A DNA stretch of 53,539 nucleotides, from NCBI GenBank assembly GCA_050012475.1, contig JBEKHC010000025.1, forward strand, positions 1-53,539. The letters are read 5' to 3'. Under the pieces are notes generated by a model, which made no database searches, was not told the DNA's origin, and worked only from the letters and a program-made list of their open reading frames with translations. A program made the translations under genes and the position numbers. The stretch is from Candidatus Velthaea sp. Its GTDB lineage: Bacteria > Vulcanimicrobiota > Vulcanimicrobiia > Vulcanimicrobiales > Vulcanimicrobiaceae. Of this stretch, positions 42,205 through 50,123 are shown one piece after another (the first letter of the stretch is position 1; every line of letters begins with the position of its first letter).

Positions 42205-42378
42205 CGACTGGCCGATTGTCGGCCCGGCGGGTAAAACTCATGTAACGTCGAGGGTTGTTTGTGGGAATAGTCTAATAGGTCACCACCGGCTCTTGCAGGC
42301 GTGCAACGCCTCGAACCGGATTTCTTACACATCCGCTTCGACGTACTGCGACGAAGCGGCTCCGTATGTATAGGCGTA

Positions 42379-45288
42379 ATGGCAATGCAAGACGCGACGG
42401 CGGCCGATGAAACGCGGCCGCGCCGCCGCTCGGCAAACTTGACCGCAGTGGAAAAGCCCCTGCGGTCCCCTCAGCTGCGCCCGTATCAGGTCGAAGCGCA
42501 ACAGGCAATCGTCGAGCACCGCAAACGCGGCATCCGGACGCAGCTCGTTTCCCTTGCCACCGGCCTTGGAAAGTGCGTCGATCCACAGACGTGGGTCTGG
42601 TCGAACGGCCTGCGGCGCTTTGGCGACACCTGGGGCAGCCGGCGCATCGCCGGTCCCGAGCAGACCGACGAGGTCGTCGGCTGGTACGACGACGGCGTCA
42701 ATCCGGGTCGCCGGATCGACACCGCCGCCGGATTCACGATCGACGGCACGCTTGCGCATCGGATTTGGATTCGGCGTGACGACGGTTTCGAGGGCTGGTG
42801 CCGGTTGGAAGCGGTGCGCGTCGGCGACTTCGTCGCGGTCGCGCGCGGGCGGGCCGATTTTGGTTCGAGCGCGCTCCCCGAATGCGACGCCTACGAGCTT
42901 GGCCGAGCGAGCGCGGCAGCCGATTGCCGCGTTGTTCGCGCGAGCACGAACGGGCCGGAACAGCGCGAGCGCGGCGGAACGTCGACCATCGCCGCGCCGG
43001 CGGCGGAAAACGTTGTCCCCGCGGTCATCCTGAGCGGAACCCGTGACACGGTCCGCGCCTATCTGCGCGGATATTTTCACGCCGGCGACGCCGCTGCGCG
43101 CGACGGGTATACAACCGCGAGCCGCACCTTCGCCGAGCAGCTGCAACTGTTAACGCTCGGCCTCGGCGTGTTCTGCGGCGTGCGTTCGGCCGCGTCGGCC
43201 GGCGGCGCAGCCCGCGCCGCGCTCGACGTGTACGACCGCGAGGCGTTTACGCGCGAATTCGGTTTCGCGCCGCTGGACCGGCTCGAGGATCGCTGTTGCG
43301 ACGTCATTCCGGGTCTCGCTGCATTGGTGGATGCATTGCCCGTCGACGTGACCGGCGAGCGCGGCTCGGGCGCACCGGCATACGCGCGAGTTCGCCGCTG
43401 GTTAGCCGACGCGCCCGCCTGCGCCGCGACGCGCGAACTCGAACGGCTCGTCGCCGAACACCGTGCCTGGACCCCGGTCGTCGAGATCAACGACTCGGCG
43501 ATCCGCCGAATCGACTGTCAAGTCGAGTCGTCGCATGCTTTCGTCGGCAACGGGATCGTCAATCACAACACGGTCATCATCGCCACGCTGCCCAAGATCC
43601 TGGGCTTGCGCGAAGGCGACGTCACGCTCGTCGTCGCGCATCGCGACGAACTCATCGAACAGATCGTCGAAAAGATGCACGTCGAGAATCCGACGGCGAA
43701 GATCGGTGTCGAGAAAGCCGAACGGCGCGCCGACGAAGATGCCGACATCGTCGTGGCGACCGTGCAGACGCTGGGCGACAAGCGGTTGGCAGAGTTCGCG
43801 TCGCGGTTCGGACGGCGGATCGCCCTGTTCGTCATCGACGAAGCGCATCATGCGGCGGCGCCGTCGTACCGCGCGATCGTCGACCGCATCTTCGCGCTGC
43901 GCAGCGACGCGATGATCATGGGATTCACCGCAACGCCCAATCGCGGCGACGGCGTGCGGCTCATCGACGTGTTCGAAAAAATCGTTTACGAGATGGATAC
44001 CCGCAAAGCGATCGACGCGGGCTATCTCGTTCCGGTCAAATCGTTTGCGATCGCCACGACGACCAACCTCGACGGCGTCGCCTCGCGCGGCGGCGACTTC
44101 GTCATCGGCGCGCTGGCCGCCGCCGTCAACACCGTCGACCGCAACGCGCGAATCGTCGCGTCGTACAAACAACACACGGCAGGGATGAAGGCGCTGGTGT
44201 TCACCGCGTCGGTCGAACATGCGCGCGACGTCGCCGAAGAATTCGTCGCCAACGGCGTCAAGGCCGAATGGGCCAGCGGTGAAACGCCCAAAGCCGAACG
44301 CGAGCGCATCGTGCGCGATTTCCGCAGCGGCAAAACGCACGTCCTGGTGAACTGCGGACTGTACCTCGAAGGCTTTGACGTTCCGTCGGTTCAGGTCATC
44401 CTCAACGCCCGGCCGACCAAGTCGACGACGCTGTACACGCAGATCACCGGCCGCGCGCTCCGACCGGTCGACGACATCGCCAACGCGCTTTCCCATACCG
44501 GCTCGGCACTGACCCGCCGCGAACTCATCGAGAAGAGCATCAAGCCGGCGGCAATCATCATCGATCTGGTCGATCAGGCCCAGCGCCATGCGCTCGTCAC
44601 GCTGCCGTCGCTCTACGGCTTGCCGCCGCAGATCGATGCGCAAGGCCGGATGACCGCCCAAGTCGCTGACAAATTCGAGGAACTGCTCAAACTCGATCCC
44701 AAGCGCGCGGCAAAGGTCCGAAGTGCCGACGACATCATCACGATGCTGGCCGAGGTCGACGCGTTCGCCGCGCCGCCGGAAATCAAGCCGACGTGGACGG
44801 CGATCGATCCGATGGATCACTGGCGGATGGAGTTACCCGCCCAACGCGTCGCGTACGATCGCAAGGGCCGGCCGATCCCCAATTTCAGCAAGCTCTACGA
44901 TCAGTGGGTCACCGAGGCCAAACGCATCGCGCCGCACGAAGATGCCGAGTCGTTTGCCCGGCGCATGCTCAACGTCGATCCCAAAATGATTCGTTACGAG
45001 CGCTCGCGCATCGACGTCAAACGCGACGGCGACTTTTACTTGACGCTGTACACGACCGACGATCTGCCCGAGCGCGTGATCGACAAGTCGTCGTCGCTTC
45101 CCGGAGCACTGGGCAGCGCCTACACGCGCGTCGACGAGATGCTCTCGGGCTACACGCAGATCGCCACGTTGCCCAACGGGCGGCCGCGCCCAGCCGGTCC
45201 GGCGGTGCCGGGCGCCGCGAAACCGGCCGGTTCGGGCCTCGCAAAGCGCTCGCGCAATGGCCGCAGCAACCGCCGCCCCCGCCCATAG
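42379..45288 (+). CDS. SF2 DEAH helicase (ResIII/Irc3/RadD-like) containing an intein
   Basis: LRPYQ, LATGLGK[intein]T, VAHR.EL, DEAHHA, GFTATP.R.D, EGFD.P, RPTKS..LY.Q..GR.LR. Confidence 0.92.
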   Translation: MAMQDATAADETRPRRRSANLTAVEKPLRSPQLRPYQVEAQQAIVEHRKRGIRTQLVSLATGLGKCVDPQTWVWSNGLRRFGDTWGSRRIAGPEQTDEVVGWYDDGVNPGRRIDTAAGFTIDGTLAHRIWIRRDDGFEGWCRLEAVRVGDFVAVARGRADFGSSALPECDAYELGRASAAADCRVVRASTNGPEQRERGGTSTIAAPAAENVVPAVILSGTRDTVRAYLRGYFHAGDAAARDGYTTASRTFAEQLQLLTLGLGVFCGVRSAASAGGAARAALDVYDREAFTREFGFAPLDRLEDRCCDVIPGLAALVDALPVDVTGERGSGAPAYARVRRWLADAPACAATRELERLVAEHRAWTPVVEINDSAIRRIDCQVESSHAFVGNGIVNHNTVIIATLPKILGLREGDVTLVVAHRDELIEQIVEKMHVENPTAKIGVEKAERRADEDADIVVATVQTLGDKRLAEFASRFGRRIALFVIDEAHHAAAPSYRAIVDRIFALRSDAMIMGFTATPNRGDGVRLIDVFEKIVYEMDTRKAIDAGYLVPVKSFAIATTTNLDGVASRGGDFVIGALAAAVNTVDRNARIVASYKQHTAGMKALVFTASVEHARDVAEEFVANGVKAEWASGETPKAERERIVRDFRSGKTHVLVNCGLYLEGFDVPSVQVILNARPTKSTTLYTQITGRALRPVDDIANALSHTGSALTRRELIEKSIKPAAIIIDLVDQAQRHALVTLPSLYGLPPQIDAQGRMTAQVADKFEELLKLDPKRAAKVRSADDIITMLAEVDAFAAPPEIKPTWTAIDPMDHWRMELPAQRVAYDRKGRPIPNFSKLYDQWVTEAKRIAPHEDAESFARRMLNVDPKMIRYERSRIDVKRDGDFYLTLYTTDDLPERVIDKSSSLPGALGSAYTRVDEMLSGYTQIATLPNGRPRPAGPAVPGAAKPAGSGLAKRSRNGRSNRRPRP
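42574..43569 (+). mobile_element. Intein (332 aa) with degenerate LAGLIDADG endonuclease
   Basis: Starts CVDPQTWV, block B GTLAHRIW, ends FVGNGIVNHN|T; interrupts Walker A GK|T. Confidence 0.93.
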
Positions 45289-45373: not shown

Positions 45374-45775
45374 ATGCGCGAGCGTCTTCGACGCAAGTGT
45401 CGTGGTCGATTGGTTTCTTCCGAACCGCAACGACATTGCGGAAATCGCATTGGATCGAGTCGTTGCCGACGCGCGCTGGTTCCTGCTCTTTGGCGCTGGG
45501 AAGTACAGGACGTGCTGCGTCGGCTCCACGCCGCTGGCCGCCTGACGCAGTCAATCGACTTCATTCGTGCGGAACTCCGCGAGTTGCCGATCGCCGTCGA
45601 TGCCGACCTCACGGGTCTGTTCGGCGAGGAAGCCGCTATCGCGGCCCACTACAACCTGACGTGCTACGACGCCGCTTACCTCGAATTAGCGCTCCGTTTG
45701 CGTGCGCCACTCGCCACGAACGATCGCGCACTTCGGGCGGCCAAAGCCGCTCGGCTTGTGCCCTTAAGGCGCTGA
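45374..45775 (+). pseudogene. vapC: VapC/PIN toxin remnant with compensating frameshifts
   Basis: The C-part VPALWRWEV...LT.YDAAYLELA...PLAT.D..L is PIN-like. The N-terminal VFDASVVVDWF lies in another frame (45384-45470). Confidence 0.75.
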
Positions 45776-45838: not shown

Positions 45839-47578
45839 TTACGCACGTGAGTGCGCTGACGACGCCGACGCCGAATCGGCAAAACGGGATGCGGTGACAT
45901 CCCTTCGCTTGGCGACGACCCGATAACTGAAGGCGCCGCCAGCTGCGGAGGTTTTTGCGCGTACGCGAAATCCGGTTCGCGTTCGATTCGTCGCGCAGAG
46001 CGGATGGTCTTCGTCGTACGCGCTGATGAACACGTGATAGGGATCGCCACTGGTGACAGAAACGAATGACGGATCGAGCGTCACCTGTGCCTCGCCGTTC
46101 TCGAGTTCGCCGAACCCGAAGTCCTCGAACCAGCTCTCGGGGCTCTCGACGCAATACATCAAGCGCTGCGAGCCGTCGGGAAACGCTACCGCCGCGGACT
46201 TTTTCCCGGTGACGGTCAAGTCACCGTTCACGACCACGTTTCCGTTGAGCTCGGCGGCATACAACCTACCCGAGGCAATCAAGCCGATCGTGCCGAGAAC
46301 ATTCGTGTTGCCCTCGGCGACCAGACCGATGGCGCTCTCGGAAAAGGCGTACACGCCGGACCCGCTGCTGGATTGAGCGCTGACGCCCGGACCGGATGCC
46401 GAGATTCCTTGCACGCCAGTGCCCGACGTCGAGGTCCCTTGCACGCCGTTGGCGGTTGGCGAGCCGCCGATCCCCAAAACGCCCGGCGCGTCATCGGCAC
46501 CGCCGAGACCGTAAACGCCCACCGCTTGTCCGAGTGGCGAGTAGTCGCTGCCGAAGCCGACACCGTGGACGCCCGGACCGCCAGGTGCGTTCGAACCCGT
46601 GGCCGGTGCCCCGCCTTGCCCGAAGACGCCGATCCCGCTGGCCCCCTCAGCGCTCAGATCGGCAAAGCCGGCGACGCCCGCCAAGGTCCCGCTAGCGTGG
46701 CCCTCGATGCCGTTGGTATTCCCACTGCCAGCCTGCCCAAAGACGCCGACCGCACCACCCAAGGGAGCAGCCGTGGCGGAGCCGCCGGACCCGATCCCCC
46801 AGACGCCCAGCGCCCCCGTGCCCTGACCCGCGCCGTAGAGGCCCGGTCCCGTACCATTTGGAGCACCGAAGCCCGCAACACCCGCCAACGTCCCGCTGCC
46901 GATGCCTTGCACGCCGTAGGCATTGAGGCTGCCGCCCTGCCCATAGACGCCGGCGGCGGTATCCGGCACGGAATTGTTTCCTCCGGAACCGATCCCGCGG
47001 ACGCCGGGTGCTCGCGGGCCGCGGCCCTCGCCGAACACGCCGGTCCCGTTGCTGGTCGGATCGCCGAAGCCGGCGACGCCCGAGAACTGCCCCGTCCCGT
47101 ACCCTTGCACGCCGTCAGCGTTACCGGATCCGGCCTTTCCGACGACGCCGACGCCGCCGGTGCCTCCCTGGCCGAGAACGCCTGGACCGTTCGTGCCTCC
47201 CTGCCCCTGGACGCCCGCATTCGAGGAGCCGCCTTCACCGACAACGCCGACGCCCGCGCCGATTCCGAGCACGCCGAAATTCTGTCCTTGACCCGGTGAG
47301 AACCCGTCACCGGTGTACTGCGGAACCCCGCCGGCTATCCCGACGACGCCCGTCCCCACACCTGGAAAAACAGCACTTCCGCCCGGACCCCCGTAGGCGA
47401 CAATACCATTCCCCGCCAGGATCCCGACGCTGTAGATGCCGTTGACCGGGGTAGTCAGCGGCGGCGGTGTCGCGAAGGTGAAAACCGTGAGGATGTCGCC
47501 GCCGCTTTCGAGTCCCCAATTACCATCGGCAATGATCTCGGTTGTCTGGCTGGTCTCGTTTTTGCCCCCAAATCCCAT
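45839..47578 (-). CDS. Gly-rich repeat protein with tail-fibre-like C-terminal domain
   Basis: Many GVxGxG repeats, then G.V.VNGDL.VTG.KSA...YCVESPESWFEDFG...FSYRVVAKR; GGAGG SD. Confidence 0.8.
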   Translation of the reverse strand: MGFGGKNETSQTTEIIADGNWGLESGGDILTVFTFATPPPLTTPVNGIYSVGILAGNGIVAYGGPGGSAVFPGVGTGVVGIAGGVPQYTGDGFSPGQGQNFGVLGIGAGVGVVGEGGSSNAGVQGQGGTNGPGVLGQGGTGGVGVVGKAGSGNADGVQGYGTGQFSGVAGFGDPTSNGTGVFGEGRGPRAPGVRGIGSGGNNSVPDTAAGVYGQGGSLNAYGVQGIGSGTLAGVAGFGAPNGTGPGLYGAGQGTGALGVWGIGSGGSATAAPLGGAVGVFGQAGSGNTNGIEGHASGTLAGVAGFADLSAEGASGIGVFGQGGAPATGSNAPGGPGVHGVGFGSDYSPLGQAVGVYGLGGADDAPGVLGIGGSPTANGVQGTSTSGTGVQGISASGPGVSAQSSSGSGVYAFSESAIGLVAEGNTNVLGTIGLIASGRLYAAELNGNVVVNGDLTVTGKKSAAVAFPDGSQRLMYCVESPESWFEDFGFGELENGEAQVTLDPSFVSVTSGDPYHVFISAYDEDHPLCATNRTRTGFRVRAKTSAAGGAFSYRVVAKRRDVTASRFADSASASSAHSRA

Positions 47579-48810: not shown

Positions 48811-48879
48811 GCATCGGGTATTTCCATTTCGCGCGCCAACTCTTCGTCGGCTCGGCCGGGGCGGGCACTGCGCACGTTC

Positions 48880-49080
48880 CTAATGCGTGCGCAGTGCAGC
48901 GGATGTTTCGGTTTCGTTGTCTAGGGCTACCCCGATGCGCACGGCGAGCGCGCCAAGAAAAACGAGTATTCGTCCGGCTACGGCGCGCGGACTGCGAACG
49001 CGGCGGCAAAGCGCGACATCGCGCGCGACGTCACGCCGGCGTTGTCGACTCAGTTCGGTCAACACGACCAGATTGAGCAT
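48880..49080 (-). CDS. Small basic hypothetical protein (66 aa)
   Basis: GGAGG-T7-ATG; Arg-rich helix followed by an amphipathic segment (GRILVFLGALAVRIG). Confidence 0.7.
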   Translation of the reverse strand: MLNLVVLTELSRQRRRDVARDVALCRRVRSPRAVAGRILVFLGALAVRIGVALDNETETSAALRTH

Positions 49081-49107
49081 AAAAAAACCTCCGGCAGATG
49101 CGGAGGT
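49081..49107 (-). terminator. Attenuator terminator that also sequesters the SD
   Basis: Minus strand acctccg-catctgc-cggaggt with a T7 tract directly before the ATG at 49080. Confidence 0.8.
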
Positions 49108-49132
49108 CACTCAACTGAACCCGACGGTGCAG

Positions 49133-49225
49133 TTAGCGAACGTGACCCTCCGCGCAAAAAAGAACCAGCATCGATTCGCAACCGACAGCAGGCATCGAAG
49201 TGACGAAAAGGGCAATTGCGTTCAT
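49133..49225 (-). CDS. Leader peptide uORF (30 aa) MNAIALFVTSMPAVGCESMLVLFCAEGHVR
   Basis: Strong AAGGAG SD; its 3' end overlaps the antiterminator strand. Confidence 0.65.
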   Translation of the reverse strand: MNAIALFVTSMPAVGCESMLVLFCAEGHVR

Positions 49226-49328
49226 CGAGGCTCCTTTCTTCGCGCGCGGTCACCGCTCGGGTCCGCCGCAACGTCCGCCAACGTTAACACGAGCCGGCAC
49301 TTTTTGCAAGCCGGCATCGCCAAAAAAA

Positions 49329-50123
49329 TTAGTGCGCGAACCAGCCGCCGTCGATCGAGATCGGTGCGCCGGTGATCGATTTCGCCAGATCGCCGCACAA
49401 GTACGCGCAGAGCGCTCCCACTTCGATGGGTTCGATGAAACGCCGCGTTGGCATCGCCTCGAGAAACGCCCGGTCCAGCGCTTCGTCCTCGCTGATGCCG
49501 CCGCCGAAGGACGTGGCGAGATCGGCGGCTTGTCCGCGAATGAGTTCCGTCATCACGGCGCCCGGACAAATCGCATTGACCGTTATCCCGATCGGCGCGC
49601 CTTCGATGGCCGCAACTTTCGTCAGCCCGACCACGCCGTGCTTGGCCGCGACGTAGGCGGCCTTGAACGGCGAACCGATCACCCCTTGCACGCTGGCGAT
49701 GTTGACGACGCGGCCGCGCCCGCGCGCGACCAGATGCGGCCAAACCGCCTTGGTCGAATAAAAGACGCCGTCGAGATCGATGCTTCGAACGAGCCGGTAC
49801 TTTTCAACCGGAAAGTCGGCGATCGGCGAGACGAATTGCACGCCGGCGTTGTTCACCAGATGGTCGATGCGGCCGAAATCCTGCGCGATCCGGTCGACCG
49901 TTGCCGACACCGCGTTCCAATCGCTGACGTCGACTGCGTAACCGCGCGCGGTCACCGAGAACTCGTTTGCCAGGGCCGAAGCCGCGGCGTCGGCATCGGC
50001 TTGCCGCAGGTCGCAGATCGCGACGGCCGACCCCGCACGCGCCAATTCCGTGGCACACGCCAGTCCGATGCCGCGTGCTGCGCCGGTGATGATGCTTACG
50101 CGTTCGCGATGTTCGCTTGTCAT
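49329..50123 (-). CDS. bdhA: 3-hydroxybutyrate dehydrogenase (SDR)
   Basis: TGAARGIG, NNAGVQFVSPI.DFP, SPFKAAYVAAKHG, NAICPG.V.T.L, IDGGW.A. Confidence 0.85.
   Translation of the reverse strand: MTSEHRERVSIITGAARGIGLACATELARAGSAVAICDLRQADADAAASALANEFSVTARGYAVDVSDWNAVSATVDRIAQDFGRIDHLVNNAGVQFVSPIADFPVEKYRLVRSIDLDGVFYSTKAVWPHLVARGRGRVVNIASVQGVIGSPFKAAYVAAKHGVVGLTKVAAIEGAPIGITVNAICPGAVMTELIRGQAADLATSFGGGISEDEALDRAFLEAMPTRRFIEPIEVGALCAYLCGDLAKSITGAPISIDGGWFAH

Follow-up and report, generated by a model that had tools for sequence, protein, structure and literature searches.

A conserved uORF-terminator-antiterminator leader, probably a transcription attenuator reporting translation efficiency, upstream of a small arginine-rich protein in Vulcanimicrobiota

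The gene of a 66-residue arginine-rich protein in the window (the whole stretch of Candidatus Velthaea sp. DNA analysed here, 53,539 nucleotides) is preceded by a conserved leader composed of a short upstream open reading frame (uORF), an intrinsic terminator and an antiterminator, which probably works as a transcription attenuator reporting the general efficiency of translation: it would be OFF if the ribosome keeps pace to the end of the uORF and ON otherwise. Judging from sequence and predicted folds, the switch is likely to turn on production of the protein when ribosomes slow down or run short. Its arrangement, a uORF with its own ribosome binding site (RBS) overlapping a predicted antiterminator that excludes an intrinsic terminator, is the one that places a leader in the class of ribosome-dependent transcription attenuators. 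Mechanistically it belongs to a known kind; searches of the libraries and the literature did not return the RNA family, its range or its target.

The module and its surroundings are laid out as follows (window coordinates):

ends at 49329: 3-hydroxybutyrate-dehydrogenase-like SDR gene, upstream of the promoter
49309-49281, minus strand: sigma70-like promoter (-35 TTGCAA, 17-nt spacer, TG extension, -10 TAACGT)
near 49275, minus strand: predicted transcription start
49253-49226, minus strand: uORF Shine-Dalgarno (SD) sequence plus upstream strand, the predicted partner of 49166-49142 in ribosome-free RNA
49240-49231, minus strand: uORF SD, AAGAAAGGAG
49225-49133, minus strand: uORF encoding a leader peptide, 30 codons, kept in position and not in sequence
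49153-49142, minus strand: antiterminator 5' strand, GCGGAGGGTCAC, within the last 7 uORF codons
49134-49130 and 49117-49113, minus strand: inner hairpin AACTG/CAGTT, which extends the antiterminator and has the uORF stop at its base
49110-49100, minus strand: switch strand, GTGACCTCCGC, both antiterminator 3' strand and terminator 5' arm
49107-49101 and 49093-49087, minus strand: terminator arms, the GGAGG of the 3' arm being the target SD
49093-49081, minus strand: terminator 3' arm and T7 tract
49080-48880, minus strand: target ORF, 66 codons, Arg-rich (18%), two-helix, with its ATG at 49080, 7 nt past GGAGG
48810-48292, minus strand: YfcE-family metallophosphoesterase (TIGR00040, above cut-off)
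48292-47690, minus strand: class I SAM methyltransferase, its start overlapping the phosphoesterase stop

A previous sequence-only reading of this locus had described the SD, the 30-codon uORF, the paired strands, the inner stem, the terminator and the overlap of the latter with the target SD, all of which were located at the positions that it gave; its hairpin with a tract of seven T is present as a hairpin, but the T run counts seven in all only if the first T, which closes the stem, is included. GCGGAGGGTCAC (49153-49142) complements GTGACCTCCGC (49110-49100) with one G bulged. That reading had not included the promoter (49309-49281), which a consensus scanner did not match in the window copy, the predicted helix that closes the uORF RBS, or the two genes, for the phosphoesterase and the methyltransferase, that follow the target on this strand. 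In the predicted folds this helix (49253-49226/49166-49142) also closes the antiterminator, and does so in the window copy only. The methyltransferase occurs in the neighbourhood of the module in the genus of the window and in one sister genus; the phosphoesterase is likely to be co-transcribed with the target in the clade of the window, and it lies outside the core module.

Taken alone, the window leader has a better fold than all but one of 200 shuffled versions (z -3.28), its antiterminator, modest evidence by itself, ranks only 4th among the 152 terminator-like hairpins of the genome, and the combination of uORF, antiterminator and terminator is found at three places in the genome (four matches, one counted twice), with the window locus scoring highest. 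The locus is secured by conservation, not by this single sequence. Three RNA data sets from the same study do not cover it, a result neutral as to its expression. Several peculiarities of the window copy may be recorded here: the C-terminus of the target departs from the genus consensus, a 69-nt gap separates it from the phosphoesterase instead of the usual stop/start overlap, and a perfect 12-bp inverted repeat (48865-48897, minus strand), of which no second copy was found in the genome, spans the target stop and could be a weak internal terminator or an RNA stabiliser. Further along the window lie a 995-aa DEAD/DEAH-type helicase ORF (42301-45288, plus strand) with an intein-like insertion, judged from its translation, whose homologues in L205 and L212 are near the same locus, and, between helicase and methyltransferase, a PIN-domain ORF (45374-45775, plus strand) and a repeat protein of 579 aa, rich in Gly, that matches nothing in Pfam (45839-47578, minus strand).

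A first pattern (antiterminator, stop and terminator) matched 21 of 401 genomes of the phylum and nothing in the control. Since this pattern presupposes a uORF stop, the test was repeated with loci chosen by the protein alone, using a profile (A5) that found matches in 48 of 321 genomes of the family, a tally that includes G367. Forty-six close loci, related to each other and not independent, were parsed, leaving out G367 (locus L198) and counting G131 as distant; their lineages within Vulcanimicrobiota include Ca. Velthaea and Ca. Elarobacter. Promoter (TTG..-TGnTAnnnT) and uORF are present in 45 of the 46. The uORF stop ends 19 nt past the antiterminator GGAGG in 43 of these protein-picked loci and 24 nt past it in two, which carry one-base frameshifts (one locus could not be parsed), and this distance stays constant over nine different in-frame uORF lengths, from 21 to 34 codons. 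The frame of the uORF and the position of its stop are under selection. The target starts 7 nt after the terminator GGAGG in 36 loci, 8 nt in three and 12 nt in seven, and it shares a 4-nt stop/start overlap with the phosphoesterase in 22 of the 46. The same layout recurs in five further loci from metagenomes, all belonging to the clade of the window and long enough to include the leader (three parsed at 19 nt, two judged by eye).

The five core pairs of the antiterminator are kept in 45/45 close loci and hardly vary, and 98.4% of antiterminator cells are paired, versus 36-59% in slid controls. Its covariation (0.168) was reached in none of 500 shuffles and comes from the flanking pairs, the outer one being CG in 26 loci, UG in 17 and UA in one, and the inner one CG in 23, UA in nine and UG in six. 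One-base frameshifts were also seen in the uORF or target of several metagenome-assembled genomes (L043/L191, L210, L046, L203, L220, L289), where they may be assembly errors or decay.

More distant homologues were collected by widening the profile stepwise, which gave 24 weak-match loci; 18 contain real family ORFs and L239 and L241-L245 were dropped. A promoter, a uORF of 14-39 codons and a terminator are present in each of the 18. The last 6-10 uORF codons are able to pair with the terminator 5' arm in the local folds of these 18 loci (one was mis-parsed, and its printed fold agrees), and the antiterminator has a probability above 0.5 in 13 of them when the whole pre-terminator transcript is folded. 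A prospective set of 13 new protein matches outside every profile contained 11 real ORFs, all with a uORF (29-46 codons) and a terminator, and two false matches (L254 and L256), neither with a leader; the antiterminator was folded in 9/11 (computed for nine) and the promoter pattern is present in 8/11, or 26/29 over all distant loci. Thus, uORF and terminator accompany 29 of 29 real distant homologues whatever the neighbouring genes, and the module extends over 26 genera and two families (one prospective locus belongs to the second family). The mutually exclusive stems overlapping a uORF that had been proposed from the window are a layout conserved throughout these 26 genera, and this check on conservation left the proposal standing.

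Neighbouring genes vary in the distant loci, often with a convergent gene next to the target, and the phosphoesterase is the next gene in only 2/29; the conserved unit, as the sequences outline it, is promoter, uORF (14-46 codons, with a strong SD), putative attenuator and small protein. Most distant targets are served by a separate SD, 20-80 nt past the U-tract, which implies that control there would be transcriptional only, and the terminator 3' arm doubles as target SD in four genera. Within the limits of incomplete genomes and of the profile, the module was not found in many of the genera searched. An early query of genus g45 (51 genomes) gave two weak matches, of which one was read and is false; weak matches in 4/101 genomes of the phylum of G447 comprise three look-alike small ORFs and one false match, none with the leader, and the phylum of G444 has a match, unread, in 1/101 genomes. 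Two of the look-alike ORFs in the phylum of G447 lie, by eye, directly behind helix-turn-helix-like genes. Similar small proteins in Chloroflexota and Actinomycetota are look-alikes whose kinship with this family is conjectural. Other observations on these loci are an ORF of G305 that may be a divergent second copy of the family, without uORF leader (L219, 1479-1661, plus strand), an SRP RNA about 650 nt downstream of the target in L240 (821-919, minus strand), and SRP-like sequences noticed by eye after several other distant loci.

Folds with a ribosome at different positions were computed on transcripts cut before the terminator 3' arm in 43 close loci, excluding L191 and L210 because of their frameshifted uORFs. 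The antiterminator is dominant in 42/43 without a ribosome (the window copy is the exception), in 43/43 with an initiation complex and in 39-42 of 42-43 when the ribosome still has 11-25 codons to go to the stop. It dominates in 0/43 with a ribosome on the last nine codons, a result that follows from the geometry and is no independent test. In full-length transcripts with a ribosome at the uORF stop the terminator forms in 20/21 close loci. The logic suggested by the sequence-only reading, in which a ribosome at the uORF end favours termination and one stalled earlier favours read-through, is consistent with the folds in 42-43 of the 43 close homologues. For the window copy itself it holds in part: its antiterminator has a probability of 0.02 without ribosome, 0.73 with an initiation complex and about 0.8 with a ribosome 11-12 codons before the stop, so these two states do give predicted read-through, but a mid-uORF ribosome is predicted not to. 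The upstream strand of this copy can capture the antiterminator, suggesting that a stalled ribosome may be needed for its ON state; none of seven further loci from its clade and the sister genus behaves in this way. At equilibrium and without ribosome, the full-length terminator wins in 8/21 close loci and in most distant ones, which indicates that the choice must be kinetic, made during transcription.

The proposed switch would operate as follows. A ribosome would load on the uORF as it emerges from the RNA polymerase and, on reaching the last nine or so codons or the stop, would cover the antiterminator strand, allowing the terminator to form, so that transcription would end near 49081 and the target SD would be hidden. 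Late loading or slowed elongation (caused by drugs, starvation or few free ribosomes) would let the long antiterminator hairpin form first, in which case the target would be transcribed with its SD free. In addition, the uORF body may pair with the uORF RBS in a weaker helix that leaves the RBS open only briefly, and the availability of ribosomes would then be sensed as well. This RBS helix is paired with a probability above 0.5 in 42/48 loci, has p<0.05 in 15/45 and shows a modest gain over codon-shuffled controls (median 0.66 vs 0.55; 35/46), and RNAalifold found no consensus for it in the alignment; it may serve as a timer, a role also proposed for such pairing in the DUF1127 leader of Sinorhizobium.

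What the ribosome reads on the uORF appears to matter little. Over 15 disjoint pairs picked by phosphoesterase distance (L191, L210, L046 and L209 were excluded for frameshifted uORFs or broken targets), dN/dS is 0.83 in the 5' part of the uORF, 0.43 in the target and 0.23 in the phosphoesterase, and GC content by codon position is flat in uORFs (0.59/0.55/0.63) and gene-like in the target (0.80/0.51/0.81). A nearly neutral peptide whose length, frame and stop codon all vary across lineages suggests that it is the position of the ribosome that is conserved, not the peptide. This bears on the idea that the uORF encodes an arrest peptide, or a sensor of one ligand or release-factor state acting at a conserved end (E-x-x-x-x-stop). 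The sole conserved uORF residue, Glu at position -5 (42/43 close uORFs), and the fixed stop distance would suit it; however, the codon of that Glu is the GAG of the antiterminator, the residue recurs in only 2/29 distant uORFs, whose frames differ, it is replaced by Gly in L195 and L296, and lineages differ in their stop codon (TAA, TGA or TAG). With the near-neutral dN/dS and no conserved nascent-peptide motif, an arrest peptide seems improbable. Sensing the shortage of one amino acid, as trpL, hisL and ilvB leaders do, is unlikely too. Met (~3x), Asn (~3x) and Thr (~1.6x) exceed the expectation from base composition in both the close and the distant sets, and 71 of 72 uORFs contain Ser and 69 Thr, but Ser is at expectation and the Met and Asn excess seems to come partly from tandem starts and codon 2. 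The 72 uORFs have no conserved codon run, and runs of at least three equal residues number only seven, of various kinds, which extends to the whole family the earlier remark that the window uORF lacks a run for any single amino acid; moreover, the target is not a biosynthetic gene and no biosynthetic or transport operon follows.

The two other alternatives dispense with the uORF or with the small protein. A riboswitch bound by a ligand or protein, with an incidental uORF, is favoured by the CGGAGG/CCTCCG/CGGAGG-U platform, which Actinomycetota cobalamin riboswitches also use; but the window and five homologous loci have no Rfam match, only 29-45 nt of unconserved sequence lie between promoter and uORF SD, and SD, start and in-frame stop are retained across 26 genera, which makes this reading very unlikely. 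That the phosphoesterase is the real regulated gene, the 66-aa ORF serving only to couple translation, is scarcely more probable: the stop/start overlap in 22/46 close loci and the relaxed dN/dS of the target (0.43) agree with it, although that gene comes next in only 2/29 distant loci and many of them are followed by a convergent gene, so that the small protein is the only product. The preferred reading remains an attenuator of the small protein that reports translation in general.

Similar platforms were noticed elsewhere. In L051, L055, L078, L085 and many other Actinomycetota loci, cobalamin riboswitches are built on the CGGAGG/CCTCCG/CGGAGG-U platform, with the SD of the next gene in the terminator arm; an identification of these look-alikes as TPP riboswitches was discarded, as Rfam returned cobalamin in 4/7 loci tested. 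The platform also stands just before a gene in L134, L145 and L162, where it is a candidate riboregulator (that of L134 has no Rfam match); the N-terminus encoded by this gene resembles that of a MiaB-type radical SAM enzyme. A gammaproteobacterial locus, L072 (1501-1573, minus strand), has an SD-led 32-codon uORF ending 18 nt past CGGAGG, then a terminator, and a 400-aa membrane-protein ORF that starts 7 nt past GGAGG; it is possibly an independent attenuator of the same design.

The target family comprises proteins of 49-80 residues with 12-22% Arg and a net charge of 0 to +10; Arg is concentrated in their N-terminal helix, and the C-terminal one is more hydrophobic. The AlphaFold2 model of the window protein, which is single-copy in its genome, has helices at 4-27 and 31-64 (mean pLDDT 80, pTM 0.35) and no Foldseek match. 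Its previous description as uncharacterised is borne out by the lack of a Pfam, NCBIfam or PDB sequence family; the ESM Atlas returned hypothetical clusters only (0.87-0.88), nothing named, and no plasmid match was found. Kinship with uL29 was rejected as helix noise (weak rows, E 0.8-2.2). Neither WhiB nor DUF1127 was matched by 36 family members (DUF1127 also 0/29). By the logic of such leaders, the protein would act in coping with translation stress, and its charge and regulation suggest that it possibly binds RNA or ribosomes. A broader proposal, which we regard as doubtful, is that Vulcanimicrobiia possess a dedicated module of one gene, in which the loading of ribosomes is timed by a uORF of no fixed sequence that turns on a basic two-helix microprotein acting on ribosomes or RNA in translation stress, a new effector family whose switch would be the convergent counterpart, with an intrinsic terminator, of the proteobacterial DUF1127 one.

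Leaders that respond to trouble in translation have earlier pointed to ribosome-rescue or resistance factors such as WhiB7, ABC-F and HflXr, as far as the available accounts go. Here this logic is kept in at least 26 genera for one unnamed protein of 50-80 residues that travels through differing gene neighbourhoods, and the leader gives a specific, testable function class to a family without annotation; if the switch does sense slow or scarce ribosomes, the target would be a new translation-stress protein. The family moreover illustrates cleanly, in nature, how a uORF can drift in length, frame and peptide and keep only the end position of the ribosome.

A search that did not extend to subscription papers found no relevant paper on attenuation in Vulcanimicrobiota, riboswitches in Eremiobacterota or leader peptides in Eremiobacter. 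In the whiB7 leader, efficient translation leads to a Rho-independent terminator and poor translation to an antiterminator, according to the available part of its description (bioRxiv 10.1101/2023.06.02.543512). The whiB7/wblC leaders of mycobacteria and Streptomyces, as far as that description goes, share with the present one a uORF of mixed composition and the same terminator/antiterminator logic, the antiterminator being here the computed state without full translation (42/43, window copy excepted). In contrast, the target here is no WhiB factor, the phylum is another, no Rfam link exists, the terminator arm doubles as target SD (in four genera) and promoter feedback is not evident. In the amino acid attenuators trpL, hisL and ilvB1 the antiterminator is masked once a ribosome has arrived at the stop of the uORF, as the accessible text reports for M. 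tuberculosis ilvB1 (PMC13236596), a likeness accompanied by the absence here of conserved regulatory codons and of a biosynthetic operon. The uORFs of bmrB (B. subtilis) and toiL (E. coli) answer several ribosome-targeting drugs (PMC4191407, PMC12121999); as excerpted there, their default state is repression, and a stalled ribosome is required to turn them ON, whereas 42/43 copies here are predicted to be ON without ribosome, and their targets differ. The closest analogue is duf1127-1 of Sinorhizobium meliloti, in which a small Arg-rich protein, its function unclear, is under the control of a uORF and in which pairing between uORF RBS and uORF body has been proposed, in the portion of the report available, to sense ribosome availability (PMC12218461). 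None of 36 members here matches the DUF1127 model, and duf1127-1 is described in that portion as Rho-dependent with its element at the start of the uORF, whereas in the present leader the terminator is intrinsic and the antiterminator sits where the uORF ends.
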